From: Candidatus Bathyarchaeota archaeon | GTDB lineage: Archaea > Thermoproteota > Bathyarchaeia > Bathyarchaeales > Bathycorpusculaceae | Assembly: GCA_963707955.1 (NCBI GenBank) | Contig: OY970176.1 | Coordinates: 640,001 to 704,000, forward strand | DNA length: 64,000 bases | Reading direction: 5' to 3' | Shown here: positions 7,960-45,737 of the stretch, in pieces | Layout of the letters: each line of letters opens with the position of its first letter | Numbering within the stretch: position 1 is the stretch's first letter | Made by a program: the position numbers and the translations under genes | Notes under the pieces: generated by a model | Databases searched by the model: none | Told to the model about the DNA's origin: nothing | What the model saw: only the letters and a program-made list of their open reading frames with translations

Positions 7960-8141
7960 ACGTGGAAAAGAGTTTTGACTCATGAAGAGAAGGGCAGGAC
8001 AAACTTAGTTCTGGTTTTGATTGAGAATTCATAACTGATTTATTCGGCGAGCACTCAGCGTTAGCCAAGAGGAACCTTGTTGCAAGCGCACTCCGAGTTA
8101 ACGTGCAGAGACAAGAGACGTTCCTTTGAAGATGATGATGA

Positions 8142-14664: not shown

Positions 14665-14753
14665 GCGGGGTTGCCCTAACCTGGTAGGGGGCAGGCCTGC
14701 TAAGTCTGTGGCTGGAAACGGCCGCGTGGGTTCAAATCCCACACCCCGCGCCA
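14665..14753 (+). tRNA. tRNA-Ser(GCT), integration target
   Basis: GCGGGGT/ACCCCGC acceptor stem, anticodon arm CAGGC-CTGCTAA-GTCTG, long variable arm, GTGGG-TTCAAAT-CCCAC T arm, G73, encoded CCA. Confidence 0.95.
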
Positions 14754-14754
14754 A
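14734..14754 (+). repeat. attL core (tRNA 3' end)
   Basis: AAATCCCACACCCCGCGCCAA matches 29285-29305 at 20/21 positions. Confidence 0.9.
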
Positions 14755-14804: not shown

Positions 14805-16136
14805 TTGGGAATCTACCGCTACGAAAGGCGCCTATGGCTCGCCGTTGAAGGACCTGAAGGAATCAAGAAGTCAAAGACGATCATCCCCCAGAACAAGAAG
14901 CTGCTGCTTAATTATGCTGAGTATCTCAAGGCCACCGGAAAGAGCCTTCCACGTCGAGACAAGCTAGTCAGAACCCTGAAGATCTTCGCAACTCTTCTAG
15001 GCCCAATACCCTTCAAACTTGCAACTAAAGAGAACATGATTCAGATCCTGGCGAAAGCTGAAGATCACTGGATGTCCGAGTTAAGCAAGAAGGGCAGACC
15101 TGGACCAGCTTCAGACTACACGCGCAGAGACTTCCAGGAAATAATCAAACAGTTCTACGCATGGCTCTTTGATGTCGAGGATCCACGCCACGAGGGATAT
15201 CCCAAGGTTGTTAGCTGGATACGCTCCAAGGCGCCGAAACAGAAGCTCAAGGCCTCCGATCTACTCACTCCCGCAGAAGTGAAGAAACTAATCAGCGTCA
15301 CACTGGACATGCGGCTCAAGGCTCTGATAGCCGTGTGCTATGAATGCGGTCTAAGGGTTGGCGAGGCTCTTCAGATGCACATAGGAGACGTCGAGTTACA
15401 AGAACAGTGCGGAACACTGACGGTGAGCGGAAAAACAGGACCGCGCGTAGCCTACTCAATCGAATCGTTACCATTGCTCATGCAGTGGTTAGATCAGCAC
15501 CCAACCCGAAACAACCGTGAAGCCTGGCTCTGGACAGATGACACGGAACCCTTAACCTACGATAGGGCCCGCTTCAAACTTCTAGAATGCAAACGAAAGG
15601 CAAACATACACAAAAGAATATTCTTCCATCTTTTCAGACACAGCTCGGCCACTTCTAACGCACAATTAGGCGAGTCCATGCTGCGTAGCATCTACGGCTG
15701 GAGCAAAAACAGCGATGAACCGAGCACCTACGTCCATCTCTCAGGAGAGACAGTTAAGAAAGCCTTACTCGAGAAAGCCGGCCTGAAGCAGAAAGCCCAA
15801 GAGGAGCCGGCAGTCATCATGTGCCCTCGCTGTGGAAATCCTAACCAACCGAACGCAAGTCTATGCATAAAATGCAAGGGTGTCTTGAAAATCCAGGATG
15901 CGGTTTCAATGAGCGGGCTCCTGGAGCAGGTTCAAAGACTGAATGAGAAAATCGAGAGAATGACTCCGGAATTCGCTCGGCATGAAGAACTATTCAGGAT
16001 CATGAAGAAGAAAGGTCTCGTCACAGAGATTAAGGACAAACCGGCTTCAGGGTCGGGCCAACTCTACACACCTTTTCGAATTCGCAGAGATACTAAAGAT
16101 GGAAAGAAGCAAGGTTTCTGCATCACTTTAGGTTAG
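14805..16136 (+). CDS. Tyrosine recombinase/integrase with C-terminal zinc ribbon
   Basis: GLRVGE (R), GKTG (K), HLFRH (HxxR), YGW, YVHL (Y); CPRC...CIKC ribbon and coiled coil. Confidence 0.93.
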   Translation: MGIYRYERRLWLAVEGPEGIKKSKTIIPQNKKLLLNYAEYLKATGKSLPRRDKLVRTLKIFATLLGPIPFKLATKENMIQILAKAEDHWMSELSKKGRPGPASDYTRRDFQEIIKQFYAWLFDVEDPRHEGYPKVVSWIRSKAPKQKLKASDLLTPAEVKKLISVTLDMRLKALIAVCYECGLRVGEALQMHIGDVELQEQCGTLTVSGKTGPRVAYSIESLPLLMQWLDQHPTRNNREAWLWTDDTEPLTYDRARFKLLECKRKANIHKRIFFHLFRHSSATSNAQLGESMLRSIYGWSKNSDEPSTYVHLSGETVKKALLEKAGLKQKAQEEPAVIMCPRCGNPNQPNASLCIKCKGVLKIQDAVSMSGLLEQVQRLNEKIERMTPEFARHEELFRIMKKKGLVTEIKDKPASGSGQLYTPFRIRRDTKDGKKQGFCITLG

Positions 16137-16334: not shown

Positions 16335-18896
16335 ATGGTCGATTTCAACAAGTTGCTCGGTAAGAAGAAACTGAGCAAAGTCTTGGATCCAATATTGATT
16401 TTCAAGGATCTCGATAAGGAAATTGGCAAGGAGGATCTCAGACTCCCCCAGGCTGCAGTTCTGAAAGACTGGCATGAGAAATGGAGAAGTAAGCGTGATA
16501 TCATTGTGAAACTGCATACAGGTCAAGGGAAGACTCTCATAGGATTGCTCATTCTCCAGTCATCCTTGAATGAAGGGTTTGGACCAGCTCTTTATGTCTG
16601 CCCAAATAAGTATCTCGTGAATCAAACCATCGAACAAGCTCGAGAATTTGGAATTCATACAGTTCAGTTCGCTCCAGACGTAACAAGGCCTCCCCAAACC
16701 TTCCTCAATTCGAACTCTATCTTGGTAACAAACTGCAAGAAACTTTTCAATGGAAAGTCAGTATTTGGAATTGCTGGGTCAGGCAGAGAGCCGATAAGCC
16801 TCGGCGCGATTGTGATGGATGACGCTCACAAGTGTCTTGACATAATTCGCGAGGCATTTTCAGTAACGGTTGATAGAACAGATGCTGATGGAAAACCCAA
16901 TCCGATGTACTCAGAGATTTGGGATTTGTTTAGGGAGTCTCTGGGAAGGCAGGCACCTGGAACCTGTTCAGATATTGAATCTGGCGAACCGAATAGCTTG
17001 ATGGCTGTTCCATTCTGGGCATGGCATAACAAACAAAAAGAAGTGCTGCAGACGCTTCGAACGCATAAAGAAGGAAAAGAACTACTATTCGTCTGGGATC
17101 TACTCAAAAACAGAATCGAACAATCGCTTTGTCTTTTCTCCGGAACGAGGCTTGAAATCGCTCCCCGAATTCTTCCAATTGATCTTGTACCAAGTTTTTC
17201 TCAGGCAAAGAGGCGCATCTTTCTTTCTGCAACGTTGACTGAAGATTCATTCCTAGTGAGAGATCTATTGATAGACCCAGAGAGCGTTTCTGAGCCATTG
17301 TCATCTGGTGACGTCAGCTATTGCGGAGAGCGGTTGATAATCATACCCTCTTTGGTTGATCTAAACCTCAGACGCGAACAGCTGATAAGATGGGTTTCCG
17401 CAATCGCAAGAAAACATGGGAGTTTTGGTGTAGCAGCAATAACCCCCTCCTTTGAGCACGCAAAGCATTGGGAAAAATACGGTGCCAAGGTGACGAATGT
17501 AGAGAATCTTGAGGAGGAAATAAGCAATCTTCAGGGAAGGATCAAGAAAAGGGAAGCTAAGGAAGTAATGATAATCGTAAACGAGTACGACGGCGTGGAC
17601 CTGCCAGACAACACTTGCAGGATTCTGACACTGGATTCTCTTCCGACCTATAGCTCTCTTATCGAAAGATTTGCTCAAGAAATGAGACCGACATCAGGGA
17701 TAATCAGAAGACATCTTGCGCAAAGAGTCGAACAAGGGATGGGTCGAGCGATTCGTGGGAGTAGCGATTGGTGTATAGTAGTCGTTGTTGGAAACAACCT
17801 GACTAATTTCCTGTCCGAGCATTCAAAGAGACAATTCCTCTCGAAGGAAGCCCAGATGCAGATCAAGATAGGAGAGGAACTCGCAAGTGAAATGAAACAA
17901 GAGGGAGCGGAAGTGGGAGTTGTCGAGAGACTCATTAATCAGGTTTTGAACAGGGAACCTGGGTGGAAGGAGTACTACAAGAAAGGAATGTCAGAAATTG
18001 GTGTCGAAACCATAAGCTCTGAAAATCTCAAACGTGCCATTTTGGAAAGAGATGCAGAGACATTCTACATTCAAGGGAATTTCAAAAAGGCAAAAGATAC
18101 AATTCAAGAACTAATCCAAATGTCGGAACAGACCGACAAAGGCTGGTATTTCCAGCTTATGGCTACCTACTTGTTCCCAATAGACAGCACAACCTCCATG
18201 GATATTCAGGTCAAAGCTCACAGCGAAAACAACCGACTTTTCCGCCCTGAAGCTGGGATAACCTACTCTAAGGTGACGGCAACTGGAAGCAACCGCGCTT
18301 CACTTATCCTAAGCTGGATGCGCACGTATGACTCCTACAATGCGCTCTTGATTAATCTTGGGAGTATTCTGGATAGAGTAGCGTTTACGGCACCTTCTGA
18401 GTCTTTCGAAGAAGGGATGAATGAATTAGGCAAAGCTCTTGGATTCTTGACTGATCGACCAGAGAAGGCTTCTGGAAGCGGACCCGACGATCTATGGAAC
18501 ATAGACGGTAAGAGATACTGGATAATCGAATGCAAAAACATGATTTCGTCGCAACGCAAAGAAATCACTAAGAAAGAAGCTGGGCAACTTGGCAATGCTA
18601 TCGGATGGTTCAAAACTAACTACAAGGATTGTGATGGAACCTATGTCTTTGTTCATCCAGCAGATGTGTACGCAAAAGATGCATATCCGCCGGAGCAGAT
18701 ATGGTGTCTAAACCCTCAAGGTCTTGACAAATTGAAGAAGAACGTTATGGCCTTCTATGTTTCCATGCAAAGTACGCCTCTTGCAGATGTCTCCGAAAAT
18801 TTGATTCGCAAAAAGCTGACCGAGTTTAGTCTGGAAACGAGTGTTGTGGCGACATCCTACCTAAAACGTGCAGAAAAGGGTCAGGCTTCAAAATAG
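16335..18896 (+). CDS. SF2 (DinG/XPD-like) helicase fused to C-terminal PD-(D/E)xK nuclease; Hna-like anti-viral candidate
   Basis: Q motif LRLPQ, HTGQGKT, MDDAH, FLSAT, YDGVDLPD, QGMGRAIRG; C-terminal GPDDLW...IIECK; SD AGGAGGT upstream. Confidence 0.75.
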   Translation: MVDFNKLLGKKKLSKVLDPILIFKDLDKEIGKEDLRLPQAAVLKDWHEKWRSKRDIIVKLHTGQGKTLIGLLILQSSLNEGFGPALYVCPNKYLVNQTIEQAREFGIHTVQFAPDVTRPPQTFLNSNSILVTNCKKLFNGKSVFGIAGSGREPISLGAIVMDDAHKCLDIIREAFSVTVDRTDADGKPNPMYSEIWDLFRESLGRQAPGTCSDIESGEPNSLMAVPFWAWHNKQKEVLQTLRTHKEGKELLFVWDLLKNRIEQSLCLFSGTRLEIAPRILPIDLVPSFSQAKRRIFLSATLTEDSFLVRDLLIDPESVSEPLSSGDVSYCGERLIIIPSLVDLNLRREQLIRWVSAIARKHGSFGVAAITPSFEHAKHWEKYGAKVTNVENLEEEISNLQGRIKKREAKEVMIIVNEYDGVDLPDNTCRILTLDSLPTYSSLIERFAQEMRPTSGIIRRHLAQRVEQGMGRAIRGSSDWCIVVVVGNNLTNFLSEHSKRQFLSKEAQMQIKIGEELASEMKQEGAEVGVVERLINQVLNREPGWKEYYKKGMSEIGVETISSENLKRAILERDAETFYIQGNFKKAKDTIQELIQMSEQTDKGWYFQLMATYLFPIDSTTSMDIQVKAHSENNRLFRPEAGITYSKVTATGSNRASLILSWMRTYDSYNALLINLGSILDRVAFTAPSESFEEGMNELGKALGFLTDRPEKASGSGPDDLWNIDGKRYWIIECKNMISSQRKEITKKEAGQLGNAIGWFKTNYKDCDGTYVFVHPADVYAKDAYPPEQIWCLNPQGLDKLKKNVMAFYVSMQSTPLADVSENLIRKKLTEFSLETSVVATSYLKRAEKGQASK

Positions 18897-19140: not shown

Positions 19141-19224
19141 GGAGGGGGTTCCCCAGTGGTCACGGGGGCTCGCTTGTCAACCGAGTGCCGTAGGGCTGCG
19201 CGGGTTCGACTCCCGCCTCCTATT
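19141..19224 (+). ncRNA. Aberrant class-II tRNA-like gene (GTC anticodon position, long variable arm)
   Basis: D arm CCCC-AGTGGTCAC-GGGG, anticodon arm CTCG(C)-TTGTCAA-(C)CGAG, variable arm GCC-GTAG-GGC, T arm GCGGG-TTCGACT-CCCGC; imperfect acceptor stem; TATA-like TTACATAA ~25 nt upstream and T-rich tail. Confidence 0.7.
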
Positions 19225-19735: not shown

Positions 19736-19760
19736 ACAGTCTGGAACAAGAATGCCTTGC

Positions 19761-19784
19761 TTCGTTTTCTTTGCATAAAACGAA
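19761..19784. repeat. Island palindrome copy 1
   Basis: TTCGTTTTCT-TTGC-ATAAAACGAA. Confidence 0.8.
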
Positions 19785-19825
19785 AGTAGACTTTAGCTAA
19801 TCTGTGTGCTCTGAGAACCTGCTTT

Positions 19826-19904
19826 CCATGGTGACACCACGGTATCAGTGACCCCCATTCTTCTAGGGGTCCAAACGTGGGCATTGACCCGAGCGACCCC
19901 ACCA
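19826..19904. ncRNA. Unknown structured motif, copy A
   Basis: Hairpins CCATGGT-GAC-ACCACGG and GACCCC-N10-GGGGTC, then CAAACGTGGGC...AGCGACCCCACCA; paralogue at 24912-25005. Confidence 0.5.
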
Positions 19905-20240
19905 ATAGCTTATTATACAGAATAAAGCTAGATCAGCCGACTATTTTTAAGAAGCAACGTCGGACACGGGTTTGTTCCTGAGGGTCGGGTGGCGTTGCCT
20001 TCACAGGTTCATGCAATGCGTTTTTTCGCATCGTGATGCAGCGGATGAAGTTGGCACTATTATCGTCTTAAGTTGTAGACCTGGTTGGTTCTGTCGGAGT
20101 TTGAACGCAGCTTTGTTACCGCATTCTGAATCGTTCTCGCATTATGCCAGAGTACCTCGATCTGATATTGTGCTGCCGATTTCTCAACTGCGGCCATTTT
20201 CGAACGAGGCGTATGAACTCTCGATGTACGCTTATGCCAT

Positions 20241-21176
20241 CTAGGGATTCAGTGTGGGAGTCAGAGACAACTTCAGGTTTCTAAGGAACTCATTTACCTC
20301 CTTGATTAGGCCAGTGCTTGCTAATGAAGGGAGAGACACTATTCCAGTAAGAAAGGAGACAATCTGTATCAAGTCGGCCGCCGTACTGATGGTCTTGTTC
20401 AAATAACGTTTTGCTTCTTTCGCTTTGGTTGAACCCTGTTCTTCCAGTCTTGTTGCGACAGCTGCCACTATTTGTCTGATTTCGTCCTGCCTATTCAATA
20501 TTGTCTTAATCTGTCCTGGAGTCTTGGAAATTTCCGCCAGGATAGCACTCCCCATTTCCTTGATTTCTCTGATGCCTTCTTCTGCTCTCCCTGCGCTTCC
20601 AGCGAGTACCTTCTGTTTTTCAGAGACGTCTTCGATTACGTCTATTATTCTGTCTAGTCTTTCTAATATCAGTAAATCGTTGGCACGAGTCATATTCAAT
20701 AGATGCAATTCACGCTTGGTTTCATTGAAAGATGTCTGTTGCCCAACCAGTACATAGCATTTGCAGCCTGAAATGTCAAATGCATACTTGTCAGTAGATT
20801 TTTCCGAGACAATTCTATCTTCACAATCCATCAGGCTTCGCGACTTATCATCGCTGATGATCTCTCTTTTCAGAAACGTCAGATAGGTGTCCATCTGAAG
20901 TCTTTCTTCTGTGCTGAGATCCTCGAGTTCTCCAAAGTAGATGTTAGCTTCTGTGGCAGATAGCACGCTATGAAGGCCACTTGCGAGATGAACTACAGGC
21001 TTGTTGCGTTTGATTACTGGATCTGACCATATTAGGAAGCAGAAGTCTTGGAACATGCTGAAAACTATCGGCTTGTAACCTGATCTTTGTTTGATCTGGA
21101 TAGGTGCGATAGTTAGTGATTCGTCCACTGCCGATCGAAAGATGAAGTATTGGGTCCCCTTTAAACCGACAACCAC
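20241..21176 (-). CDS. Hypothetical protein with C-terminal coiled coil and hydrophobic helix
   Basis: 311-aa ORF; heptads from LERLDRIIDVIEDV; tail ADLIQIVSFLTGIVSL. Confidence 0.7.
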   Translation of the reverse strand: MVVGLKGTQYFIFRSAVDESLTIAPIQIKQRSGYKPIVFSMFQDFCFLIWSDPVIKRNKPVVHLASGLHSVLSATEANIYFGELEDLSTEERLQMDTYLTFLKREIISDDKSRSLMDCEDRIVSEKSTDKYAFDISGCKCYVLVGQQTSFNETKRELHLLNMTRANDLLILERLDRIIDVIEDVSEKQKVLAGSAGRAEEGIREIKEMGSAILAEISKTPGQIKTILNRQDEIRQIVAAVATRLEEQGSTKAKEAKRYLNKTISTAADLIQIVSFLTGIVSLPSLASTGLIKEVNEFLRNLKLSLTPTLNP

Positions 21177-21205
21177 TTTCTCTGGACTATTCCCAGTTAT
21201 CCAAA

Positions 21206-21886
21206 CTATCTCACGCGATATATTGGTTGCCCCCTCTCGTCTTTTCCGAGTTCTTCAAGATCCAGTGGCGTTTTGTGCAGACCTTCCTGCGCGATTATTC
21301 TGTTCGTCTTCTGCATTGATCTTAACAAATCACAAGCTCTTTGGAGAAGTTTCTTTCCCGCATCTCGAGTTTGTTTGAATGGTGAAAAGAATAGAGACGT
21401 CCCAGTCCTGAGTAGAGATGCTAGTTCACTGAAGACTCTGTGTTCAACAGTTCCCTCAAAATATCTGTTTGTAGCGGTTGTGAACGCATCAGCCAATGCT
21501 TGGAGTCTGGAGTAGGACGGTTGTGTGTCACTTTCTATGGTTCCTACCAGTCCCTCAAAATACTCGTCTGGGTCAACGTTGCCATCAAGAACATGGTTGG
21601 TGGCAGCCACCATCACTTCCTGAATTTGATCGCCAATAGGCTGAAGATCCGCATGCAATATCATGAGGTACATTTTAGCTTTTGGAGTTAAGTTGAATCT
21701 CTCACTGCGTCCCTCGAAGGAAATGTTCGCAAGACCGTAACTGACACACGACTTGAGTATGGCGGACGCAACATTTCGGCTAATACCAGTGCTATTCACG
21801 ACTTCGGTTATGTTCCGAGGCTCTTTCTCGTCGAGCGCACCAAGACATTCAACGAACTCGTCAAGCCATGGTTTTGTTCGACTCAT
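21206..21886 (-). CDS. Winged-HTH protein
   Basis: Start re-placed at ATG 21886 behind SD GGAGGTGA; NITEVVNSTGISRNVASAILKSCVSYGL...FNLTPKA is a wHTH pattern. Confidence 0.7.
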   Translation of the reverse strand: MSRTKPWLDEFVECLGALDEKEPRNITEVVNSTGISRNVASAILKSCVSYGLANISFEGRSERFNLTPKAKMYLMILHADLQPIGDQIQEVMVAATNHVLDGNVDPDEYFEGLVGTIESDTQPSYSRLQALADAFTTATNRYFEGTVEHRVFSELASLLRTGTSLFFSPFKQTRDAGKKLLQRACDLLRSMQKTNRIIAQEGLHKTPLDLEELGKDERGQPIYRVR

Positions 21887-21944
21887 CTGCCATTTCACCT
21901 CCTGATTTGTATTACTTGAACGCAAGCATTCGCAAAGGGCAAAT

Positions 21945-21969
21945 GCAATGCATGCATTGTATGCATTGC
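21945..21969. promoter_or_regulatory. Inverted repeat, candidate operator of the wHTH gene
   Basis: GCAATGCAT-N7-ATGCATTGC just downstream (minus strand) of the AT-rich TATA-like tract at ~21975-21985. Confidence 0.45.
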
Positions 21970-22074
21970 GCCCATAAATATAAATGTTTCCCTCACCCAA
22001 AAGCACAGTATGTTACAATGAGCTACTTCTCACCAATTGCTTCAAGTTGAAGTCTCGCCAGAACCCCAACCCGA

Positions 22075-23604
22075 TTAGTTTTGATAGTAATTGAACGCTA
22101 ATGAGTACAATGCTCCAGGACTGGAAGCGCTTTGGTCTGTTCTTATCAGTTTGCATGCGCTGTCTAATATTTTCCTCGGTTCAGCTTTGACAGTAACCTT
22201 ATTTTGAGAGAGTGTATCCATGGTTTCCGTGTCTGTTGGAAACGATGGGTTTCTTTCTTTTTTGAAGATTCCCCCGAGAATTCGGTCATTATTCTCTGCT
22301 ATTCGAGTCCCAATGTGAAGAGCAGCATTTGAGATGCAGTCCATGCACTGTATGTGTGATTCGTAGATGTCCTCTTCTACTCGTTTATGTTCAAGAAGAT
22401 ACTTCAGTAACGATGTGCTTTCATTTTCGATTTCGGAAAAACAGCTAGCTGCCTCTTCGGCATATTCTCTAGGAAGACTCGACAACTTCTGAATGGAGTT
22501 GTCTGAGTTAGCGTTTACGTAGGCGAGGACAATTGAGATTCTCAAGAGAACACCTGTGAAAAATCTCGAATTCCATCTCAGCCTCTGCGAATCGGGCCGC
22601 ACTCTGGCAACTGCTGGTTCAAATACATAGTCTTTCATAGCTCGAATATATGAGGTGCCTGCAATTCGCAAGGCGATAATATCCATAAGCGATTCGTAGA
22701 GGTGTCTCGTAAAAGGTTTGTTTGTTGCATATTCAACAAAACTCTGTGGGGTTGGGGCGTTCAGAGTATCCTGCCATTTCTTGAAAGGACAGAAACTCAT
22801 GTTTTTGTTGAGTTTGGTATTGCAGCCTCCCATTATTTCCAACAACTTCTGTCGCAGACCAAAGATACATTCGAGTGTATCACTTAGTACAGTCACAGAC
22901 TCTGGAGCGAGCGAGCGTGGTCTTCCAAGCTCATCAAAGCTTGTCTGACATGCTGCGTGCGAGATCTCATGTGCGAGTATTAAAAGTCCCTGAAGATTAT
23001 ATTTAACATCCATAGCAAGATTCAGATGAAAAGTCTTGTGAAGAAGTGTGTACCGGCCCCCCGGAAGTGATTGTTGCAGTTGAAGTTCAGACCAGGAAAC
23101 AAACTTGTCCCATCTCACTCCTGACATGTTCAGGTATGAGAGATAGTTGTTAACTAGTTTATCAGCAGCTACCAAGTAGAGTTCGTTTCCGCAACTTCTT
23201 TCAGGGCTGAATGGAATGCCAGCTATTATGTACGGAAGCTCCACACTATCTGTTCTCTGGAAAAAGCCCGATTTTATGAACGACACGATTCTTGCTATTT
23301 TCTCTATTGCATATTTTGCATCTGCGATGGCGATCATTTTATCGCTGTCGCTTTGTTCAGATTCATTCTCCTCGCTTCCTGCGTATCTTGTAACCTGACT
23401 TGAGAAAAATCTAATCTCGTCATCCAACCCTCCCTGACCAAAAATATCAGGGAGGATATCGCTATTTTCAAATGCCTTGCTGGCGAATTTCCATCGGTCT
23501 TTAAGTGTTAGATATTCACTCAGAAGACCTCTGTACTTGCGGAGAACGTCTCGGAAGACTTCATCAGAGCATGCATATCTGTCAGTCTTTATCAAGGATC
23601 TCAT
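22075..23604 (-). CDS. HEXXH (gluzincin-like) metallopeptidase-domain protein
   Basis: LAHEISHAAC plus downstream YESLMDIIALRIAGTSY (E...D..A....G..Y). Confidence 0.6.
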   Translation of the reverse strand: MRSLIKTDRYACSDEVFRDVLRKYRGLLSEYLTLKDRWKFASKAFENSDILPDIFGQGGLDDEIRFFSSQVTRYAGSEENESEQSDSDKMIAIADAKYAIEKIARIVSFIKSGFFQRTDSVELPYIIAGIPFSPERSCGNELYLVAADKLVNNYLSYLNMSGVRWDKFVSWSELQLQQSLPGGRYTLLHKTFHLNLAMDVKYNLQGLLILAHEISHAACQTSFDELGRPRSLAPESVTVLSDTLECIFGLRQKLLEIMGGCNTKLNKNMSFCPFKKWQDTLNAPTPQSFVEYATNKPFTRHLYESLMDIIALRIAGTSYIRAMKDYVFEPAVARVRPDSQRLRWNSRFFTGVLLRISIVLAYVNANSDNSIQKLSSLPREYAEEAASCFSEIENESTSLLKYLLEHKRVEEDIYESHIQCMDCISNAALHIGTRIAENNDRILGGIFKKERNPSFPTDTETMDTLSQNKVTVKAEPRKILDSACKLIRTDQSASSPGALYSLAFNYYQN

Positions 23605-24451
23605 CCAAAACTATCTGTTTTTCGAACTTCAATACAGTCCCAGTCCAATTGGGTGGTCCCGAAGATCTGAAGTTCTTTCGCATTTGCTTTATTACTTTTA
23701 GCAGGGCTTGTGGCGAGGATCTTTTGGTGTCTCTTGCGAGATCAAAGTATCCAAGCCGATATCTTGTGCCGCGATATCGAATCATTTTTTTAAGTAGCGC
23801 ATTGTCACCAAGCTTTACGTTAATGGTTCCAGAAACAACATCCTTTTTAGGTGCCTCTGTATGCTGATTACATATTATCATGAAAGTGCAAAAATCTCTT
23901 GCAAACTTGGTTCTCGCCCTGACAGCGATAATAGACCTAGATAGAGCGTCATAACTTTCACCCTCGAGTTTCAACAGGTAGGATACAAAACTCGGATTCC
24001 ACATGAAATGATAGCCGATGTTTGGATGCTTCTTCTCTATATGTTTCAGTGCTTCCAGAATGTCTGAGAGGTCGTTATTAGCAATCCTAAAAACCGAATA
24101 CGCTCTATATGGCGGGAGAGATTTCGGCCTTTCTCCTGACCATTTATGGCTTCGCATCGGAAAACAAAGCAGTGATAGAAAGGAGCCTTCGAAAGAACGA
24201 GCCCTGAAGAATTCTTTCCGAATCGTATTTAGTAACTCAAAACCGGCTTCAGGGGACGCAGGTTGGATGTCAAAAACGTAGTCAAATCTTCCAAAGCATA
24301 CGCCAAAAAAGCTGGGCACACTAGAATTCTCTTCTAGGATTCTTAAAATCCTTGACTCCACCATGCGCAAATTCCTAGTGAGAACGAAGGTGACTATTTC
24401 TGGGACTGGCGAGATTAGAAGTTCTTGCGTACCTTCTTGCGCGTTGCTCAA
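23582..24451 (-). CDS. Protein with repeated Lrp/AsnC ligand-binding-like (ferredoxin-fold) units
   Basis: CFGRFDYVFDI and YRLGYFDLA resemble the GxxD motif of AsnC/RAM domains; overlaps the HEXXH gene. Confidence 0.5.
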   Translation of the reverse strand: MSNAQEGTQELLISPVPEIVTFVLTRNLRMVESRILRILEENSSVPSFFGVCFGRFDYVFDIQPASPEAGFELLNTIRKEFFRARSFEGSFLSLLCFPMRSHKWSGERPKSLPPYRAYSVFRIANNDLSDILEALKHIEKKHPNIGYHFMWNPSFVSYLLKLEGESYDALSRSIIAVRARTKFARDFCTFMIICNQHTEAPKKDVVSGTINVKLGDNALLKKMIRYRGTRYRLGYFDLARDTKRSSPQALLKVIKQMRKNFRSSGPPNWTGTVLKFEKQIVLDEILDKD

Positions 24452-24911
24452 GAGACATGCACCATGCCAAAAACTCGAGATAGCTCAGTTCCTCTTACTT
24501 GCGGTTTCTTACAGATCGACGTGGTCTATCAAAATCCCCTCATTCACCTTCATATGAAGGAGAGAAAAACGACTCGCCTATCCGTGGATCCCTTGATTTT
24601 GCCACGAGTCTTGTACGCCTATCCAGCTCACCCTTGGGAGGGGGTAGAGTGACCACATACTCACGGATGCGTTCAAGACGAATTCTTAGTTTGCGATCCA
24701 CGCATAGTCCCACGGCTCCCTTATCCGGTGATACTGTATTATGTCTTGTGAAACCAGAATAATGATTCCTGACCATCTCTAGCACCAAAGAGCTGTTTTC
24801 TTACTAGAAAACTAGCAAGTTAACTTAAAGCTTTCTACGACGCGGTCACCTCGGTCATCTACTCCACAGCCACTGTTCCAGTTCGGGCACCAACACAGCG
24901 CCGATTAATAG

Positions 24912-25005
24912 GATTTTCCGGAACGCGTAACGGAGTAATCTTCAAGGAGCCCTATAGCATAATGAGGGTTCAAACGCGGGCTCTGGACGCCAAGCGACCC
25001 CACCA
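24912..25005. ncRNA. Unknown structured motif, copy B
   Basis: Hairpins GATTTTCCG-N10-CGGAGTAATC and GAGCCCT-N11-AGGGTTC, then AAACGCGGGC...AGCGACCCCACCA. Confidence 0.5.
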
Positions 25006-25035
25006 TAACTACAAAGGTTTTGTCACAGCTACTTC

Positions 25036-25059
25036 TGCGTTTTATGTTTATAAAACGAA
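25036..25059. repeat. Island palindrome copy 2
   Basis: TGCGTTTTAT-GTTT-ATAAAACGAA. Confidence 0.8.
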
Positions 25060-25233
25060 GCTCAACAGGTTGTCCTAGAAAGTCCAAAATGAGAAAAAGT
25101 ACTGAAGAGAATACTTCGAAGTTGTCCTTCAGAATGGTTGATGGGAAGACGCGAAATCTTCAGACCTTTCGCTCTGAAGCTTTCCTGCTTCCTCATGTGC
25201 AAAGTAGCGTTTCCGTTTTCTGACAAGATTAAT

Positions 25234-26292
25234 CTATGACAAGGTTCGTTGTTCCAGAAAACCCAAGACGCGTCCAATGGTTTCACTGTAGGAAAGAGTT
25301 GTCCTCGCACCTGCCGCTCTGGAATTAGGACCTCCGCCTCCGAGGAATTTCGCAAGAGGTCTAACATCGTATGGAGCAAAAAGACATCGAAAAACGACTT
25401 TCCCGTTTTTATAAGCAACATAGAGAGCATGGTCTTTTTCTCGTTCGCATACGTCACTAATGAAATTGATACTTGAAAAATAGAGATTGCAAAACTTGAC
25501 TTTCAACCCGCTTCTGAAAAACACATCATACTTATCCTTGAGGAACTCCTCTATTCTTGAAAGGTCTTCTTGATATTTTTGTAAAGCGAACGATAACTTG
25601 GTATCTTCGTGCAATAGTTTGTTTATGTTGTTTGCCAGACATGCATCAAGAAAAGAGTCATAGGTATATTCAGGGCCTGCTGTAGCAATCGAAGCTCTAA
25701 CAACCTTGGCTAAGGACATTAGCTTTGATGTTATTACGGATTCCAAATCGAATCGGTCAATTAATCCCATTTTCTTTATGAGATCGAACATCTCAAAGCT
25801 ATCTTCTATGCAGTAATCTTGGGCAGCGCCTATTCCTCCCACCCAGCACCTTTGACTAAAAAAGTCGCGGTCGATATTCATGAGGATTTTCCATACTAGA
25901 GCTGAGGAGTTGAGGAAGTCAACATTGTCTAAGTGGGGATTGCAATCAATGAAATTCCTATCATTAATATGGAGAATATCATGGTGATCAAGATTCATTA
26001 TTCTTGTTTCTTTTAAGATATCTGAAAGATAGTTTGTATACTGCTGCAAGGGGCTGTCTACTATAATCAAGTACTTAGGTTGGCGGTCCTTGATGGACTT
26101 TAGAATTTCATAGTATTGACAAAATCTAGATGGATATGAAATCTCTGCACGAACACCATATTTCGATACAAAATAGGCATTCAATAAAACGCTCGCACTG
26201 AACCCGTCGTGGTCAGCATGTGACATTATCATGCAATCACGAGGCGAGATTTCCTGCAAAATAGCAACAACATTTTTGAGATTTTCAGTCAT
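25234..26292 (-). CDS. DHH-family phosphoesterase with DHHA1-like C-terminus
   Basis: SHADHDG, IVDS, LDHH, GGGGP..AAGA motifs. Confidence 0.85.
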   Translation of the reverse strand: MTENLKNVVAILQEISPRDCMIMSHADHDGFSASVLLNAYFVSKYGVRAEISYPSRFCQYYEILKSIKDRQPKYLIIVDSPLQQYTNYLSDILKETRIMNLDHHDILHINDRNFIDCNPHLDNVDFLNSSALVWKILMNIDRDFFSQRCWVGGIGAAQDYCIEDSFEMFDLIKKMGLIDRFDLESVITSKLMSLAKVVRASIATAGPEYTYDSFLDACLANNINKLLHEDTKLSFALQKYQEDLSRIEEFLKDKYDVFFRSGLKVKFCNLYFSSINFISDVCEREKDHALYVAYKNGKVVFRCLFAPYDVRPLAKFLGGGGPNSRAAGARTTLSYSETIGRVLGFLEQRTLS

Positions 26293-26307
26293 AAGACAAG
26301 CCTCGCA

Positions 26308-27993
26308 TTAGAAGGCATCGTCCACACACGCGAAGTTCGATGCACTTACTTGTCGATGCAAACCTAGTCTGGCAACATAAGAATAATGAGCCATTCGTTT
26401 TTCAACTTTAGTCATTAGAACCTCTTTTTTGAATTCGTTGGGATTTCTAATGAGATCAATGATTTCTGGAAGTGTTAAAAAGTATATGTCTTTCTCATGG
26501 ATCAGTTTACTTGAGGTAAATTGCTTGCCTGCTAGAGTGAAGAAAGGTCGAATAATAGACAGGTTACGGATCCAATGGTGATGATGATTATCTCTTTCCT
26601 GAGAAAGTTTCCTAGCTGCATTCAACGTGAACGTAAAGCTTTCATTATCAGAAACACCAAGTTTACCCTCAACAAAATCAACTGTTTGTCCAAACTTAAG
26701 CTTGTTCTCCTTAAGAGATACATGTTCTTTAGTTTCGTGATCAGACTTTCTAATTGCAGAAAGCATACCAATTGCATTCGATATGGGATCGAAATAAGGA
26801 TCTCTTGTCCGTATCCACCACCAATTGTTAGTGTGGTTTTGTAACCGCTCTAGCCAATCGCGACCATCTGGTATTTTGGCAATGCTACCCATTATTGTTC
26901 TTTCATCCTGCGCTGAAAAGATCTGATCCTTGATTTCCTCTGAAGCACTTTCAAGCAGGCGTGACGTTTCGATTGCAAACCTATTAGAAATTACTATCTC
27001 CTTCACGTCAACTGGCCTTAATAGAATGCTCATGCAATCGGCAACAGTTGCATTATCCCTACAAGCCTTTGCTACCAGTTCACGTAGACGCGGACCGACG
27101 ATGTCATCGCCCATTGATTGTATTAGATATGTGTGGGAAAAGAACTCGTTATGTACTGCCCACCAAGAGATAAAATGCTCAACAAGCTCAGGAGAGACTG
27201 CCTGTTCGCTGGTTAATACACTCTCAAATCTTGCGGTCGCCTTGTCGAAGCTTTCGTATACTTCTTGAAGCCGGTGCAGAAACCAACCCCAGTAAAGGCT
27301 ATCATTTTGGATAAATTTCTGAGAAAGTCGCTTAAGTAACCGGCTTGTCGTTTGAAACTCGATACAAACATTTTGGTGATACCTGACATACAGGGGCGAC
27401 AAATCTTCGAAGCCAAGAGCATGGGGAACCCTTTCAATTCCGCCTCCTATCAGAGAGCGCTGAACAAAAGATCCGTATATCTCTGGCCTTGGCGTAATCC
27501 ACTGGTACTCTTTTTCCTTGTCCGGGGCTTTCCAAGCATAATCTATCCGTTCACACAAAGGCAGAGTGAGGAACACTTTCTGTGCAAAAACTGGGACGCT
27601 ATTTCCAAATATCGTAAACCTGGTAAGAGCGTCATTTTTGTTTTCCGTGCTCAAGAGTCCTTCCAAAATATGTACCTGGCCGTTTGTTCCATCTACTTTG
27701 ACCAACATACCATCTTTCAGCAATATCGTAGCATTTTGCGTTCCTGTGACACAGGGAATAGCTCTCTCCCTCGAAATAACAGCCGCATGGCAAGTAAGAC
27801 CACCACTGTCAGTAATGATTGCTGAGCATTTTCCCATAGCAAGGACCATATCGGGATTTGTCATTCGAGCGACAATGATATCTCCCCTTTCAACCTTTTT
27901 CAAGTCAGCATTGCTAAAAACTATTCTTACTCTTCCCTCCGCACTCCCACCACTTGCCGGAATGCCTGTTATGATTTGCGTTGGTTTGCTCAT
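26308..27993 (-). CDS. PEP-utilising phospho-His swivel domain (N-terminal) fused to a helical domain resembling the rifampin phosphotransferase substrate domain
   Basis: GIPASGG.AEGRV, MTNPD, DSGGLTCHAAVISRE, VDGTNG; C-terminal WWWIRTRDPY, ERDNHHH, DIYFLTLPEI. Confidence 0.75.
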   Translation of the reverse strand: MSKPTQIITGIPASGGSAEGRVRIVFSNADLKKVERGDIIVARMTNPDMVLAMGKCSAIITDSGGLTCHAAVISRERAIPCVTGTQNATILLKDGMLVKVDGTNGQVHILEGLLSTENKNDALTRFTIFGNSVPVFAQKVFLTLPLCERIDYAWKAPDKEKEYQWITPRPEIYGSFVQRSLIGGGIERVPHALGFEDLSPLYVRYHQNVCIEFQTTSRLLKRLSQKFIQNDSLYWGWFLHRLQEVYESFDKATARFESVLTSEQAVSPELVEHFISWWAVHNEFFSHTYLIQSMGDDIVGPRLRELVAKACRDNATVADCMSILLRPVDVKEIVISNRFAIETSRLLESASEEIKDQIFSAQDERTIMGSIAKIPDGRDWLERLQNHTNNWWWIRTRDPYFDPISNAIGMLSAIRKSDHETKEHVSLKENKLKFGQTVDFVEGKLGVSDNESFTFTLNAARKLSQERDNHHHHWIRNLSIIRPFFTLAGKQFTSSKLIHEKDIYFLTLPEIIDLIRNPNEFKKEVLMTKVEKRMAHYSYVARLGLHRQVSASNFACVDDAF

Positions 27994-28861: not shown

Positions 28862-29036
28862 AGATCTTAACACCACGATATCTCCAGCGTGCGCTAAATG
28901 AGGATTTGTCTTGGTAAGCTATTGATATTGAAGTCTCAAATAGTTCGTAATCCAGCCTTAATCATGTTGCCATCTACACTGGTTTTTACTGCGTGCGCAT
29001 GCGAGAGAACGCTGGTAACGCGCTTTTGATTTGTCT

Positions 29037-29087
29037 TTCGTTTTATTGGAAAAAAACGAAAGCTTCAGTTTCTTCGCATAAAACGAA
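29037..29087. repeat. Island palindrome copies 3 and 4 (tandem)
   Basis: TTCGTTTTAT-TGGA-AAAAAACGAA (29037-29060) and TTCAGTTTCT-TCGC-ATAAAACGAA (29064-29087). Confidence 0.75.
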
Positions 29088-29167
29088 AAGATACCAAGGA
29101 AGTACAGAAAAACAGAACTTGAGAAGAAAAACACGCTTCGCCCCTCTCTCGTTTCTTTTGATTTCTG

Positions 29168-29214
29168 GACAAACATATATGTTTGTCATGTTCGTTTTAT
29201 GTAAATAAAACGAA
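29168..29214. repeat. Perfect 20-bp palindrome plus island palindrome copy 5
   Basis: GACAAACATATATGTTTGTC (29168-29187) and TTCGTTTTAT-GTAA-ATAAAACGAA (29191-29214). Confidence 0.85.
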
Positions 29215-29284
29215 AACGTTATAACTACTTATCGGCGACAAAAATCGTTTTCACAGAAGAAAATCCAGATTTGGAGATTGGACA

Positions 29285-29305
29285 AAATCTCACACCCCGC
29301 GCCAA
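29285..29305 (+). repeat. attR core
   Basis: AAATCTCACACCCCGCGCCAA duplicates the tRNA-Ser 3' end. Confidence 0.9.
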
Positions 29306-29751
29306 TTCCGCGTGTTATTTGAAATCTTTCTTTAGCGCGCTGCCTTGTCGCTTTATTATGCGTGCACACTTGAACAGCCACGTAGCCCCGCATCCAACAT
29401 GAACGGCTTCATCGTTTTCAACGATGCTCGTCGACTGTATATGCAAAATGTATATGCTTTTTGTATATGCTCTTACGTGCGCGCTATTGGCGAATTCAGG
29501 GACAAGCCAGCGCGCGGGCTAAACAGCTAGAAGAGGAAATGCCAGAAGAAGAGGAATGAAAGTGAAAGATTGGGAAAAGCGAACTATTCGCAAATATGCT
29601 AATATGGGAGTCCTTGACCACCGCGTTGACTGTGATTATTTTGTAACGGGAAAGTCTGATATACATTACGGTCATTTCATATTCAGAATTAGCGCGCGCG
29701 ACAACAACCGCGTAGATGAATCAAACAGTGATTTAGGAAAGTGAGAGCATC

Positions 29752-45420: not shown

Positions 45421-45737
45421 GCGGTGGGTCTTAGGCGGGGGGCTAGGGGTCCCCTGTACCGTAAACCCTCTATAGGACGGGCCGAAAGCTGGGGCTGAGG
45501 CGTTTAAGGCTGCTGAGGCCTTCATTTCCGAAGCGAAGACTATCCGTCCCTTGGGGCTGGCGGTCATTAGGCGGGTTCCCGTAGGGGAGCTGTCTTTAGT
45601 GTTGACCAGGCGAACTTGGCCAGGACCGGGAGGGAGCAACCTAAGTCTGGGCGTTCAGCGCTCAGGGGGGTGCGGGTACGAGTGTAGGGTCTGAGGGTTC
45701 AGCGGAGTCTGAGCGTCGATCTCCTGTGGCCCACCGC
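45421..45737 (+). ncRNA. ffs: Archaeal SRP (7S) RNA
   Basis: Terminal helix GCGGTGGGTC/GGCCCACCGC; Alu domain GGGGG...CCCCTGTA; helix 6 CCC-GTAG-GGG; helix 8 CCAGGACCGGGAGGGAGCAAC; TATA TTTTATAG at 45390-45397. Confidence 0.92.

Follow-up and report, generated by a model that had tools for sequence, protein, structure and literature searches.

Two short stretches of similar sequence, here called A and B, flank a set of four genes in the 64,000 nt of Candidatus Bathyarchaeota DNA that were analysed (the window). What are these stretches, and why do they stand on both sides of the same genes? Most likely, A and B are two copies of a ~38-base attachment site that stems from the end of a tRNA-Pro gene, and do not represent a new RNA.

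Copies A and B share a core in unrelated flanks

Both copies contain the blocks CAAACG[T/C]GGGC and AGCGACCCCACCA on the + strand and in identical order, with spacers of 11 nt (A) and 13 nt (B) between them. Together they form a long core of ~40 nt, located at 19866-19904 in copy A (GGGGTCCAAACGTGGGCATTGACCCGAGCGACCCCACCA) and at 24965-25005 in the more diverged copy B (AGGGTTCAAACGCGGGCTCTGGACGCCAAGCGACCCCACCA), both on the + strand. The likeness is confined to this core. The adjoining 59-60 nt on the left and 60 nt on the right are at shuffle level, with 653 and 314 of 2000 shuffles, respectively, scoring as high as the actual flanks. A sequence-only reading of this DNA had included two upstream hairpins in the shared motif and had taken their differing stems as a sign of kept pairing. 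Blocks, order and strand are as described there; the hairpins, as the flanks are unrelated, are local to each copy and lie outside the shared motif, and the supposed covariation falls away with stems that sit in non-homologous sequence. Across the family described below, a hairpin of at least 6 bp between flank and core start was found in 9 of 58 members, compared to 11.9 with shuffled flanks. The TATA-like boxes noted near both copies are present as letters. In the source genome, a gapped core pattern matches exactly twice, at A and B, and the core occurs again at 62 other loci; hence the repeat is above chance. Copy B departs from the consensus at ~8 positions and may be inactive as a site.

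The core is a sharply bounded sequence family

Outside the window, the long core was found on five MAG contigs titled Bathyarchaeia or Bathyarchaeota and at 57 metagenome loci, while a search of viral contigs gave no match. Including the window, the 64 matches comprise 58 distinct sequences with the ~38-bp consensus (R)GGGTTCAAACGTGGGC-WYYRA-CCTAAGCGACCCCACCA. As the collection scans fixed ~25 core columns, part of the invariance of these columns is built in, and the scans under-sample variants, for instance those with decayed right ends.

The edges of the core are sharp. More than 4 nt outside the searched pattern, the information content is at most 0.2 bit per column upstream and, except for three columns at 0.3, also downstream. 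Families of left and right flanks occur shuffled across the loci, and homology stops exactly at the core. Loci L033 and L037, for example, agree over at least 962 nt to the left of the core and over 0 nt to its right, and for L019 and L031 only the right flank is common to both. At L007, L012 and L061, one and the same TPR/KaiC gene, together with its left arm, precedes right contexts that differ between all three loci. In an ungapped walk over 2016 pairs, four shared only the left flank, three only the right and seven both. The variable pentamer does not track the flank on either side consistently. X, the left and middle portion of the core (GGGTTCAAACGTGGGCWTTGACC), is intact at an orthologous locus in four genomes of the same genus, where the tRNA-like right part has decayed, which hints at a role for X beyond that of a passive scar.

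The core derives from the 3' end of tRNA-Pro(GGG)

A short form of the core, GGGTTCAAATCCCAGCGACCCCACCA, is identical to the 3' end of tRNA-Pro(GGG) (CTGGGTTCAAATCCCAGCGACCCCACCA); it starts within the T-stem and matches the end of the gene letter for letter. The pattern GGTTCAAATCCNNNCGACCCCA is present in 99 of 301 genomes of the class, several of which contain 2-4 copies. ARAGORN called a tRNA at the match to this pattern in 21 of 30 fetched loci, namely 19 Pro(GGG), one Pro(TGG) and one unnamed tRNA with an odd four-base GGGA anticodon. From tRNA-Pro(GGG), the long core has retained the T-arm start (GGGTTCAAA) and, as AGCGACCCCACCA, the acceptor strand, the discriminator and the CCA, and it has 16 nt in place of the TCCC of the tRNA. 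A tRNA intron was discarded as an explanation for this replacement, as the T-stem would be unpaired and the acceptor strand one base too long, judging from the sequence.

Short and long cores also have flank families in common. The short core of L068 has the left arm 'a' (GGGAGATGTCTCC) and the right arm R-2. The AT-rich inverted repeat that forms the right arm of copy A (R-1, 19905-19964, + strand) is found after the tRNA-Pro(GGG) of the source genome (C1:550.5 kb) and after the tRNA-Pro of L037. The arm of copy A is homologous to this tRNA downstream flank, with an alignment score of 16 compared to -9.1 +/- 3.8 for shuffles, none of 2000 reaching it. At the level of sequence, the long core can thus be shown to descend from the 3' end of tRNA-Pro(GGG). 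At none of the 64 loci does the long core itself belong to a tRNA: ARAGORN found no tRNA between -400 and +200 nt around any core, and GGGGTCG was absent from the 220 nt upstream of the long core at all 64 loci. The tRNA-like ACCA end on the + strand that had been read from the letters is, like the apparent mini acceptor helix, an inheritance from tRNA-Pro.

Direct arrays of cores enclose diverse gene modules

Cores often repeat in direct orientation, 1.2-5 kb apart, and enclose one to four genes; A and B, likewise direct, are 5.1 kb apart. One metagenome contig carries three copies, at ~736, 5134 and 7372, and another carries two. At three metagenome loci and on one MAG contig, a short core is accompanied by a long core of the same orientation. 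At L037, L051 and L055 the short core lies 1.25-1.35 kb to the left of the long core, at L068 the short core occupies 3723-3748 and the long core 8105-8140, and L042 and L069 each contain one additional decayed copy. Elsewhere, the genes next to cores are accessory genes of diverse kinds, including those for GNAT, NosD, catalase, AIPR and SIR2-like proteins (63 of 89 nearest neighbours were scanned against Pfam), and the biggest neighbour clusters contain 3 of the 89 proteins. The gene to the left points towards the site at 30 of 46 loci. By Pfam, no integrase is encoded in those bounded modules whose genes were scanned.

As had been proposed, A and B border one module: between the cores, at 19905-24964, lie four genes on the - strand (20241-24451) for proteins of 311, 266, 509 and 289 aa. 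Pfam, PADLOC and NCBIfam yielded no significant family and no recombinase domain for them. The 509-aa protein has ten relatives outside its own cluster, which carry neither an informative name nor a Pfam domain. The next module, also on the - strand (25234-27993), encodes a DHH-family protein of 352 aa and a PEP-utilising mobile domain protein of 561 aa, assigned by Pfam and NCBIfam.

Both copies lie within an island at tRNA-Ser

The surrounding DNA is itself an inserted element. A tRNA-Ser(GCT) gene (14665-14754, + strand; Rfam tRNA model, 54.4 bits; also called by ARAGORN) ends in a 21-nt attL (14734-14754, + strand), of which a direct repeat with 20 of 21 identical positions forms the attR at 29285-29305 (+ strand), 14.5 kb away. 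Next to the tRNA lies the gene for the island integrase, a 443-aa tyrosine recombinase whose C-terminus carries a zinc ribbon (14805-16136, + strand; Pfam Phage_integrase, 1.2e-18). With NCBIfam scores of 80 bits for XerA (cut-off 220) and 34 bits for integron integrase (cut-off 265), it is neither of the two. A stretch 74% identical to it also adjoins a tRNA-Ser in another genome of the genus (G459). The following gene encodes an 853-aa helicase (16335-18896, + strand; PADLOC PDC-S28, E 9.5e-288; Pfam DEAD, ResIII and Helicase_C_2), a candidate single-gene defence protein. An odd 84-nt tRNA-like gene at 19141-19224 (+ strand), called as Asp GTC, was detected by Rfam and ARAGORN with a borderline Rfam score of 29.5 bits (gathering threshold 29). 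AT-rich palindromes of family D1, such as CGTTTTAT..ATAAAACG at 25034-25060, occur five times in the island, at 19759, 25034, 29035, 29062 and 29189, and may be arm-type or promoter elements. Of the seven 2-kb bins between 16 and 30 kb, six have a G+C content of 0.41-0.45 and the one at 18-20 kb has 0.465, compared to 0.46-0.52 outside. Five genomes of the same genus that do not have the A-B module miss the whole island cargo. The context of A and B is a mobile, strain-specific island of 14.5 kb, integrated at tRNA-Ser.

A and B as probable junctions of accreted modules

The probability is roughly 0.7 that A and B represent att-type junctions, at which modules accreted through a tyrosine recombinase, inside the strain-specific defence island at tRNA-Ser. 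What can be observed directly is a sequence family with sharp edges, shuffled flanks, direct arrays, tRNA-Pro ancestry and the context of an island. Long and short cores would then mark the joints of gene modules that were united by site-specific recombination in Bathyarchaeia. Tyrosine integrases aimed at the 3' end of tRNA-Pro would insert elements beside an existing copy, every insertion leaving one copy per side, and repeated insertions would build arrays of modules parted by direct copies. The 5.1-kb four-gene unit at 19905-24964 would be one such module in the tRNA-Ser island.

Integrase genes do stand beside some cores: at L068 a 438-aa ORF with a PF00589 match abuts the short core, and at L037 a 427-aa Phage_integrase follows the long core on the right after 34 nt. 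Integrases adjoining cores share only 18-23% identity with each other, and no one enzyme can be assigned to the site. The sole integrase of the island, at its tRNA-Ser end, is 22% identical to that of L068 over 189 residues. Several observations speak against accretion at att-type sites. The A-B module contains no recognisable recombinase, the five same-genus genomes miss more than this module alone, the pentamer gives no fix on the crossover point, and X outlasts the decayed right part at the orthologous locus. No excised or empty core joint was found in the assembled contigs of four runs. Recombination probably takes place at the core, a tyrosine recombinase presumably acts there, and the sites may still be active. 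The folded DNA recombination site considered in the sequence-only reading pointed in the right direction, towards a double-stranded att-type site derived from tRNA-Pro; the site is not attC-like, as the core has neither the palindrome nor a GTTRRRY box.

Alternative explanations

The core could instead encode a small structured RNA, read from the + strand with the tRNA-like ACCA end or from the - strand starting with GGUGGGGUCGC, and serve as a decoy, antitoxin or switch. The acceptor and CCA end of the tRNA is kept, X persists at a locus with a decayed right part, and in several right-flank families a run of T follows shortly behind the core on the + strand, with ATTTTT straight after CCCCAC in four distinct loci. 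The helices GGTT/RACC, GTGGG/CCCAC and GGGT/ACCC are possible and paired in 83-99% of cells. Homologues exist at the 62 further loci, and they show no covariation: among 58 sequences and three candidate helices, no compensatory pair with both sides changed was found, as in shuffles. The one-sided changes conflict, Y25/A50 favouring the - strand and T18/R33 the + strand. Folding of the cores gave z-scores of -2.24, -1.10, -0.37, +0.21, +0.35 and +0.16, and the full 79-nt and 94-nt stretches on both strands, at 0.00, -1.06, -1.08 and +0.44, folded no better than shuffles. Rfam, tRNA models included, returned no match for the core motifs at gathering thresholds or at E<=10. RNA genes, moreover, are not distributed as a 38-nt unit with unrelated sides, shuffled flanks and direct arrays spaced by kilobases. 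The proposed novel small RNA is therefore improbable.

Similarly improbable is a cis-acting, non-recombining element that binds a protein, i.e. an operator or promoter module spread via the ends of mobile genes. X contains an imperfect dyad, GGTTCAAA-CGTGGGC-TTTGACC, and, at the orthologous locus of the four same-genus genomes where it is kept, stands ~115 nt ahead of a conserved 203-aa gene, and AT-rich, TATA-like palindromes accompany many copies. However, the variable part of the core coincides with the right arm of the dyad, the genes up- and downstream are unrelated between loci and of diverse Pfam families, and right neighbours lie on either strand (20 on +, 23 on -). Binding would also leave the homology breaks at the exact edges and the tRNA-Pro ancestry unexplained.

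A conserved N-terminus of a small - strand protein, the alternative on which the sequence-only reading would have given way, has a negligible probability: both window copies do read M/L-VGSLG, and ATG, GTG or TTG stands at the start position in 45 of 58 loci, an NTG that follows from the CCA end as the reverse complement of CAN, whereas the frames (7-80 codons, median 27) diverge right after 13 core-encoded residues, the second block is read in differing frames in A and B owing to a 2-nt indel, the three in-frame differences between A and the consensus fall on codon positions 1 and 2, and the aligned variants L025 and L063 contain an in-frame TAG.

Comparison with known systems

The 3' ends of tRNAs are described as preferred sites of integration, and tandem integration as well (PMC8371274). 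The present family resembles the tRNA-gene att sites of archaeal and bacterial tyrosine-integrase elements in its identity block, which covers the tRNA 3' end and closes with the CCA, in the direct repeats bordering inserted DNA, in the integrase genes beside some copies and in the tandem units within a genomic island. It differs in that its common form is a free-standing derivative outside tRNAs, with 16 nt for TCCC, that most bounded modules are small (1.2-5 kb, 1-4 genes) and without integrase, and that the window copies lie in an island integrated at another tRNA, that for Ser. Cis-mobilisable elements of streptococcal ICEs are integrase-less units bordered by att copies beside an integrative element. 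Such modules with direct att copies, mobilisable in trans (putatively so here), are a close parallel, although from another domain of life, with another site and with a conjugative element that is not evident here.

Integron cassettes, including those of archaeal integrons (Ghaly et al. 2022, PMC9668308), likewise are small, integrase-less modules with diverse accessory functions, and a site that recurs in one orientation parts them from each other. The left gene tends to face the site in both. The attC site conserves its fold with variable sequence, whereas the long core conserves its sequence and has no significant fold; it also lacks the GTTRRRY/RYYYAAC boxes and the R''/L''-L'/R' palindrome. 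The modules here reach up to 5 kb and four genes, and no IntI-type integrase was found, integron-integrase models scoring far below their cut-offs. With tRNA genes and tRNA-like RNAs, the long core shares the T-loop start, the 3' acceptor strand, the discriminator A and the CCA of tRNA-Pro(GGG), and differs from them in having no 5' half, no cloverleaf and no match to tRNA models. What it probably marks, in many Bathyarchaeia, are the joints of swappable gene modules, at which the same core recurs.

Two copies of a long core in the window

The site under study is a repeat of ~38 nt, the long core, which occurs in the window as copy A (19866-19904, GGGGTCCAAACGTGGGCATTGACCCGAGCGACCCCACCA) and copy B (24965-25005, AGGGTTCAAACGCGGGCTCTGGACGCCAAGCGACCCCACCA). 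In an alignment of A and B both motifs are present and the similarity is limited to the core; the flanks are no closer to each other than shuffles, which scored as high in 653 of 2000 cases on the left and in 314 of 2000 on the right. The two copies are exactly the matches to the gapped pattern in the genome of origin, and the strict pattern was matched in one of 400 other genomes of the class. A scan with one genome per species gave five contigs with a long core, all from Bathyarchaeia or Bathyarchaeota, and a metagenome scan gave 57 long-core loci, while viral contigs held no match for the long core, its left-middle part (X) or the shorter form of the site.

With the window included, the set comprises 64 matches and 58 distinct sequences. 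As ~25 core columns were fixed by the search pattern, their invariance is built in. Outside these columns, information is confined to ~4 nt on each side (-1 G 1.7, +1 C 1.2 and +2 A 1.3 bits); beyond 4 nt from the core it is at most 0.2 bit upstream, and the same downstream except for three columns at 0.3. Within the unfixed gap of the core, CCTAA is retained and the pentamer WYYRA is variable. The pentamer tracks neither flank consistently, and locus pairs disagree.

The core resembles the 3' end of tRNA-Pro(GGG)

A shorter form, the short core, was found at 3723-3748 of a MAG contig (L068; GGGTTCAAATCCCAGCGACCCCACCA), between left arm 'a' and right arm R-2, which are recurrent flank families. 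It abuts a tyrosine-recombinase ORF of 438 aa, beyond which lie a TPR/KaiC gene and, at 8105-8140, a long core. The pattern GGTTCAAATCCNNNCGACCCCA is present in 99 of 301 class genomes, several of which have 2-4 copies a few kb apart. At 21 of the 30 loci examined an ARAGORN tRNA ends at the match, namely 19 tRNA-Pro(GGG), one tRNA-Pro(TGG) and one unnamed tRNA with the 4-base anticodon GGGA. The tRNA-Pro(GGG) gene ends in ...CTGGGTTCAAATCCCAGCGACCCCACCA, and the short core is identical to this 3' end. The long core agrees with it in its left 9 nt and its right 13 nt, with a 16-for-4 nt replacement between them. In sequence, the long core is thus a tRNA-Pro 3' end that carries CGTGGGCWTTGACCTA in place of TCCC.

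In the genome of origin, the tRNA-Pro 3' end lies on the minus strand at C1:550541-550562 and is followed by right flank family R-1. It belongs to the only tRNA-Pro(GGG)-like gene of this genome, 123 nt in length (C1:550541-550663, minus strand; L101 1541-1663; GGGGTCG...CCTGGGGCG...). The right flank of copy A is homologous to the downstream flank of this gene, with a score of 16 against -9.1 +/- 3.8 for shuffles, none of 2000 being as high. At three metagenome loci the short core stands 1.25-1.35 kb left of the long core in direct orientation, and at L037 the short core is a tRNA-Pro-like gene, with a Phage_integrase gene 34 nt past the long core.

The long core itself does not lie in a tRNA gene. 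GGGGTCG was found within 220 nt upstream of the long core at none of the 64 loci, ARAGORN placed no tRNA between -400 and +200 nt around any of these 64 cores, and the tRNA model gave no match at E<=10 around copy A or B. Readings of the long core as a tRNA, a split tRNA or a tRNA with a T-loop intron were rejected: on inspection the T-stem is unpairable and the acceptor strand would have 8 nt, and ARAGORN made no call.

The 123-nt tRNA-Pro-like gene carries ~46 extra nt in its 5' half and is called by neither ARAGORN nor Rfam. An integrase-like ORF stands upstream of it in divergent orientation, an arrangement also seen in another genome (G403:C1) and on L068. For the genome of origin (G000), ARAGORN lists 26 tRNAs without introns and 43 in intron mode, several of them doubtful. 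No tRNA for Met, Phe or Tyr is among them, and non-canonical introns are probably present in many of this organism's tRNA genes.

Flanks are shuffled at the core and modules are bounded by it

Several flank families recur at the cores, on the left 'a' (GCGGGAGAYATCTCCAT...) and b-e, on the right R-1 (CAAARCCTTATTTTGCGAAATAAAGCTA...) and R-2 to R-6, and left and right families are paired in many combinations. An ungapped walk over 2016 pairs of loci showed homology on the left only in four, on the right only in three and on both sides in seven. For L033 and L037, at least 962 nt of the left flank match and none of the right; for L019 and L031 the homology is limited to the right flank. A gene for a TPR/KaiC-like protein of ~1300 aa is found together with its left arm in three different right contexts (L007, L012, L061), and on one contig it has long cores at both sides (L057, L061). 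Direct repeats bound segments with unrelated flanks and homology breaks at the repeat, as in a tRNA-derived att site.

In the window, copies A and B enclose four genes in a module of 5.1 kb. The three core copies of a metagenome contig delimit two GNAT genes in 2.2 kb and the TPR/KaiC gene in 4.4 kb, on a second contig two cores 2.4 kb apart surround a NosD-like protein, and a 3.8-kb module with one aminotransferase-AAA gene is bounded by a decayed and a full copy (L069); the module at L042 measures 1.18 kb. No integrase was found in the bounded modules whose genes were scanned (Pfam, for the A-B module also NCBIfam). Pfam was also applied to 63 of the 89 ORFs adjoining cores, the 26 shortest or doubtful ones being left out. 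The nearest neighbours are diverse accessory genes, with seven GNATs, three NosD/beta-helix proteins, two catalases, two adenosine deaminases, AIPR, SIR2_2, Nmad3, others and one integrase, and the largest cluster of neighbour proteins has three members. Of 46 left neighbours, 30 are oriented towards the core, and of 43 right neighbours, 20 lie on the plus strand.

In four DNA runs from one study, all of them assembled contigs, neither a joint across the A-B module nor an empty or excised form was found; in one run, contig material shares just 19872-19905 with the window and has other flanks.

The palindrome GGGAGAYATCTCC occurs at ~30 places in the genome of origin (e.g. C1:213009, 559913, 2026995, 2236576) and left of ~12 long cores. 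It is often preceded by AAAAA-GRGGRG-nTTGC and forms left arm 'a' of many cores. With one mismatch allowed, its genome count is far above chance (~3 expected by a rough calculation). At C1:213009 it also stands before another tRNA-like 3' end.

Both copies lie in a strain-specific island

The two cores are held by a 14.5-kb island at tRNA-Ser(GCT) (ARAGORN, about 14665-14754, plus strand), directly downstream of which follows a tyrosine integrase of 443 aa (Pfam, 14805-16136, plus strand). The last 21 nt of the tRNA are repeated at 29285-29305 with 20 of 21 positions identical. Of the seven 2-kb bins over 16-30 kb, six have a G+C content of 0.41-0.45 and one (18-20 kb) of 0.465, against 0.46-0.52 elsewhere. 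When a 14.8-kb stretch over the island was compared with five same-genus genomes, only tRNA-Ser was common to all; one genome has an integrase-sized stretch at 74% identity, and all other hits are short and fall in the core or in a 66-nt repeat. As these five genomes hold little of this stretch beyond tRNA-Ser and the island cargo is missing as a whole at this site, the island is strain-specific.

The island's integrase is followed by a helicase of 853 aa (16335-18896, plus strand) that PADLOC matches over its full length to PDC-S28, a candidate defence protein (E 9.5e-288), here in an archaeon and beside an integrase. The four genes of the A-B module (20241-24451, minus strand) belong to no known family. 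Outside the cluster to which it belongs, its 509-aa protein has ten relatives, all of them lacking an informative name or Pfam domain; for the 289-aa protein the Atlas gave leads below 0.9 only, to Lrp/AsnC-like clusters. Right of copy B, genes follow for a DHH protein and for one with a PEP-utilising domain (Pfam, NCBIfam). For the window cargo and the integrase, tblastn (1e-5) found no homologues in the collected core loci.

A tRNA-like gene of 84 nt at 19141-19224 (plus strand) scores 29.5 bits with the Rfam tRNA model, against a gathering score of 29, and is called Asp(GTC) by ARAGORN. Its 5' end is G-rich and its extra arm unusually long; it may be a pseudo-tRNA or a tRNA carried by the island. 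Five AT-rich palindromes (TTCGTTTTAT....ATAAAACGAA) are confined to the island, one near each core copy (19759-19785, 25034-25060) and three just within its right end (29035-29061, 29062-29088, 29189-29215), and possibly serve as arm-type or promoter elements. The 66-nt stretch at 29333-29398, just outside the right end of the island, recurs, with four copies in the genome of origin and more than 12 in two same-genus genomes. Since conservation continues into the next bases and there is an open frame on the minus strand, this stretch is probably the terminal part of a small multi-copy gene. Elsewhere in the window, Rfam places the Archaea_SRP RNA at 45422-45736, which shows the window to be archaeal.

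Comparison with known site types and with an RNA

The sequence-only reading had proposed either a novel small RNA or a folded, attC-like recombination site. The recombination site is retained, probably as the tRNA-derived att type, and the attC-like part is not: judged by inspection, the core has GTTCAAA against GTTRRRY, with C at a required-purine position, and no conserved R''-L'' partner stands upstream, because the core flanks are not conserved; its folds are not significant. According to one account (PMC9668308), the archaeal integrons reported to date carry IntI and attC sites of the canonical, folded kind, whereas neither attC boxes nor IntI are found here. An integron was also rejected from the window integrase, which reaches 34 bits with TIGR02249 (cut-off 265) and 15.7 bits with NF011946 (cut-off 435).

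In portions of another account (PMC8371274), archaeal tyrosine integrases are described as favouring the 3' ends of tRNA genes, integration as leaving the identity block as a direct repeat at both sides, and tandem integration at a single locus as documented. The long core is like tRNA-derived att sites with tandem accretion in that it matches the 3' part of a tRNA and direct repeats bound the modules. It is unlike integrase-bearing integrative elements in that integrases lie just outside some cores (L037, L068) and none lies in the A-B module. One integrase family for the site was rejected, the pairwise identities being just 18-23%. A limited literature search found no description of such a site in Bathyarchaeia, which is no claim that none is in print.

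A structured RNA finds little in its favour. In the Rfam check, only chance-level matches for the proposed motif were obtained, over the whole window at the gathering threshold and around both copies at E<=10. Fold z-scores of the core on both strands were -2.24, -1.10, -0.37, +0.21, +0.35 and +0.16, two of them from slightly offset coordinates of one locus (L009), and for the full motifs, which had been taken as structured, they were 0.00, -1.06, -1.08 and +0.44. Among the 58 sequences, no pair changed on both sides in the mini acceptor helix, GGTT/RACC or GTGGG/CCCAC, the same as in shuffles, and one-sided changes in the candidate helices are contradictory on the strand. A hairpin between flank and core was present in 9 of 58 sequences against 11.9 in shuffles and is not enriched. 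The reading frame over the core on the minus strand turned out not to be a gene. A candidate "novel RNA" is removed in this way, and a tRNA-end relic is seen to be able to mimic one.

Three other site types were dismissed. A Xer/dif module, in which a 28-bp dif-like site (11-6-11) would be joined by a XerA-type recombinase, fails on a XerA score of 80 bits against a cut-off of 220 and, by inspection, on the lack of an 11-6-11 dyad in the core. A CRISPR repeat, solitary ones included, would have spacers of ~25-50 nt, against core copies 1.2-5 kb apart with genes between them. An IS200/IS605 or TnpB omega-RNA end, to which the large ORFs preceding some copies might point, was rejected because the neighbours are unrelated families.

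A proposed mechanism

In the preferred reading, a tRNA-derived att site, elements with the long form in attP would recombine either at the tRNA-Pro gene or at any copy already present. If exchange took place within the shared right part (GCGACCCCAC), the tRNA would keep its own T-arm and the long form would always be left outside the tRNA, in agreement with its presence in a tRNA at none of the 64 loci. Repeated integration events could build arrays, and small integrase-less modules could arise by integrase loss or by mobilisation in trans. The A-B module would be one such unit, carried by an island that integrated later, or independently, at tRNA-Ser. Several observations do not fit this mechanism: the absence of a recombinase from the A-B module, the lack of one integrase family that goes with the site, the absence of empty or excised forms among the assembled contigs, a 16-nt insert for which it offers no explanation, a pentamer that tracks neither flank, and the retention of X beside a decaying right part.

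X forms an imperfect dyad, GGTTCAAA-CGTGGGC-TTTGACC. At C1:716795-716817, outside the window, the genome of origin reads ...CCTAAGACAATCCACTA, with X retained while the tRNA-like right part decays; at the orthologous sites in three further genomes of the genus, the sequence varies between canonical and heavily changed. The retention of X where the right part decays suggests that X is the part under constraint, which would fit a recombinase binding site; a different role, in DNA binding or as RNA, would fit too.

About 115 nt downstream of this decayed core, C1:716934-717545 (plus strand) and its relatives (L103-L119) encode a conserved protein of ~200 aa of no known family. In 10 of the 17 closest homologues (E<=1e-70, related genomes) an in-frame stop (TAG or TAA) lies inside the match; in the genome of origin codon 21 is such a stop, and a relative has CAG in its place. 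The stop could reflect read-through, a leader ORF upstream or a start set at the wrong codon.

Implications for Bathyarchaeia

A bolder reading, which we put forward tentatively and consider rather unlikely, would make the long core, now detached from its parental tRNA-Pro gene, a portable docking site of a Bathyarchaeia-specific cassette system. Every copy, those on other islands such as the one in the window included, would then take up, release and reshuffle in trans modules that hold 1-4 genes, lack an integrase and are bounded by the 38-bp site, with X as the recombinase binding dyad and the pentamer as the overlap that sets compatibility. Such a system would work much like an integron, with a site defined by its sequence and derived from a tRNA in the place of a folded attC.

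Bathyarchaeia are abundant and mostly uncultured, and to our knowledge almost nothing is known of gene exchange in them. The module cargo includes defence candidates (AIPR, SIR2-like, with PDC-S28 nearby) and adaptive genes such as catalase, GNATs and secreted beta-helix proteins. If the sites are active, a tRNA-derived att sequence would have become independent of its tRNA, and the 38-bp word together with its tRNA-Pro(GGG) parent would give a simple, searchable marker of module boundaries in Bathyarchaeia genomes.
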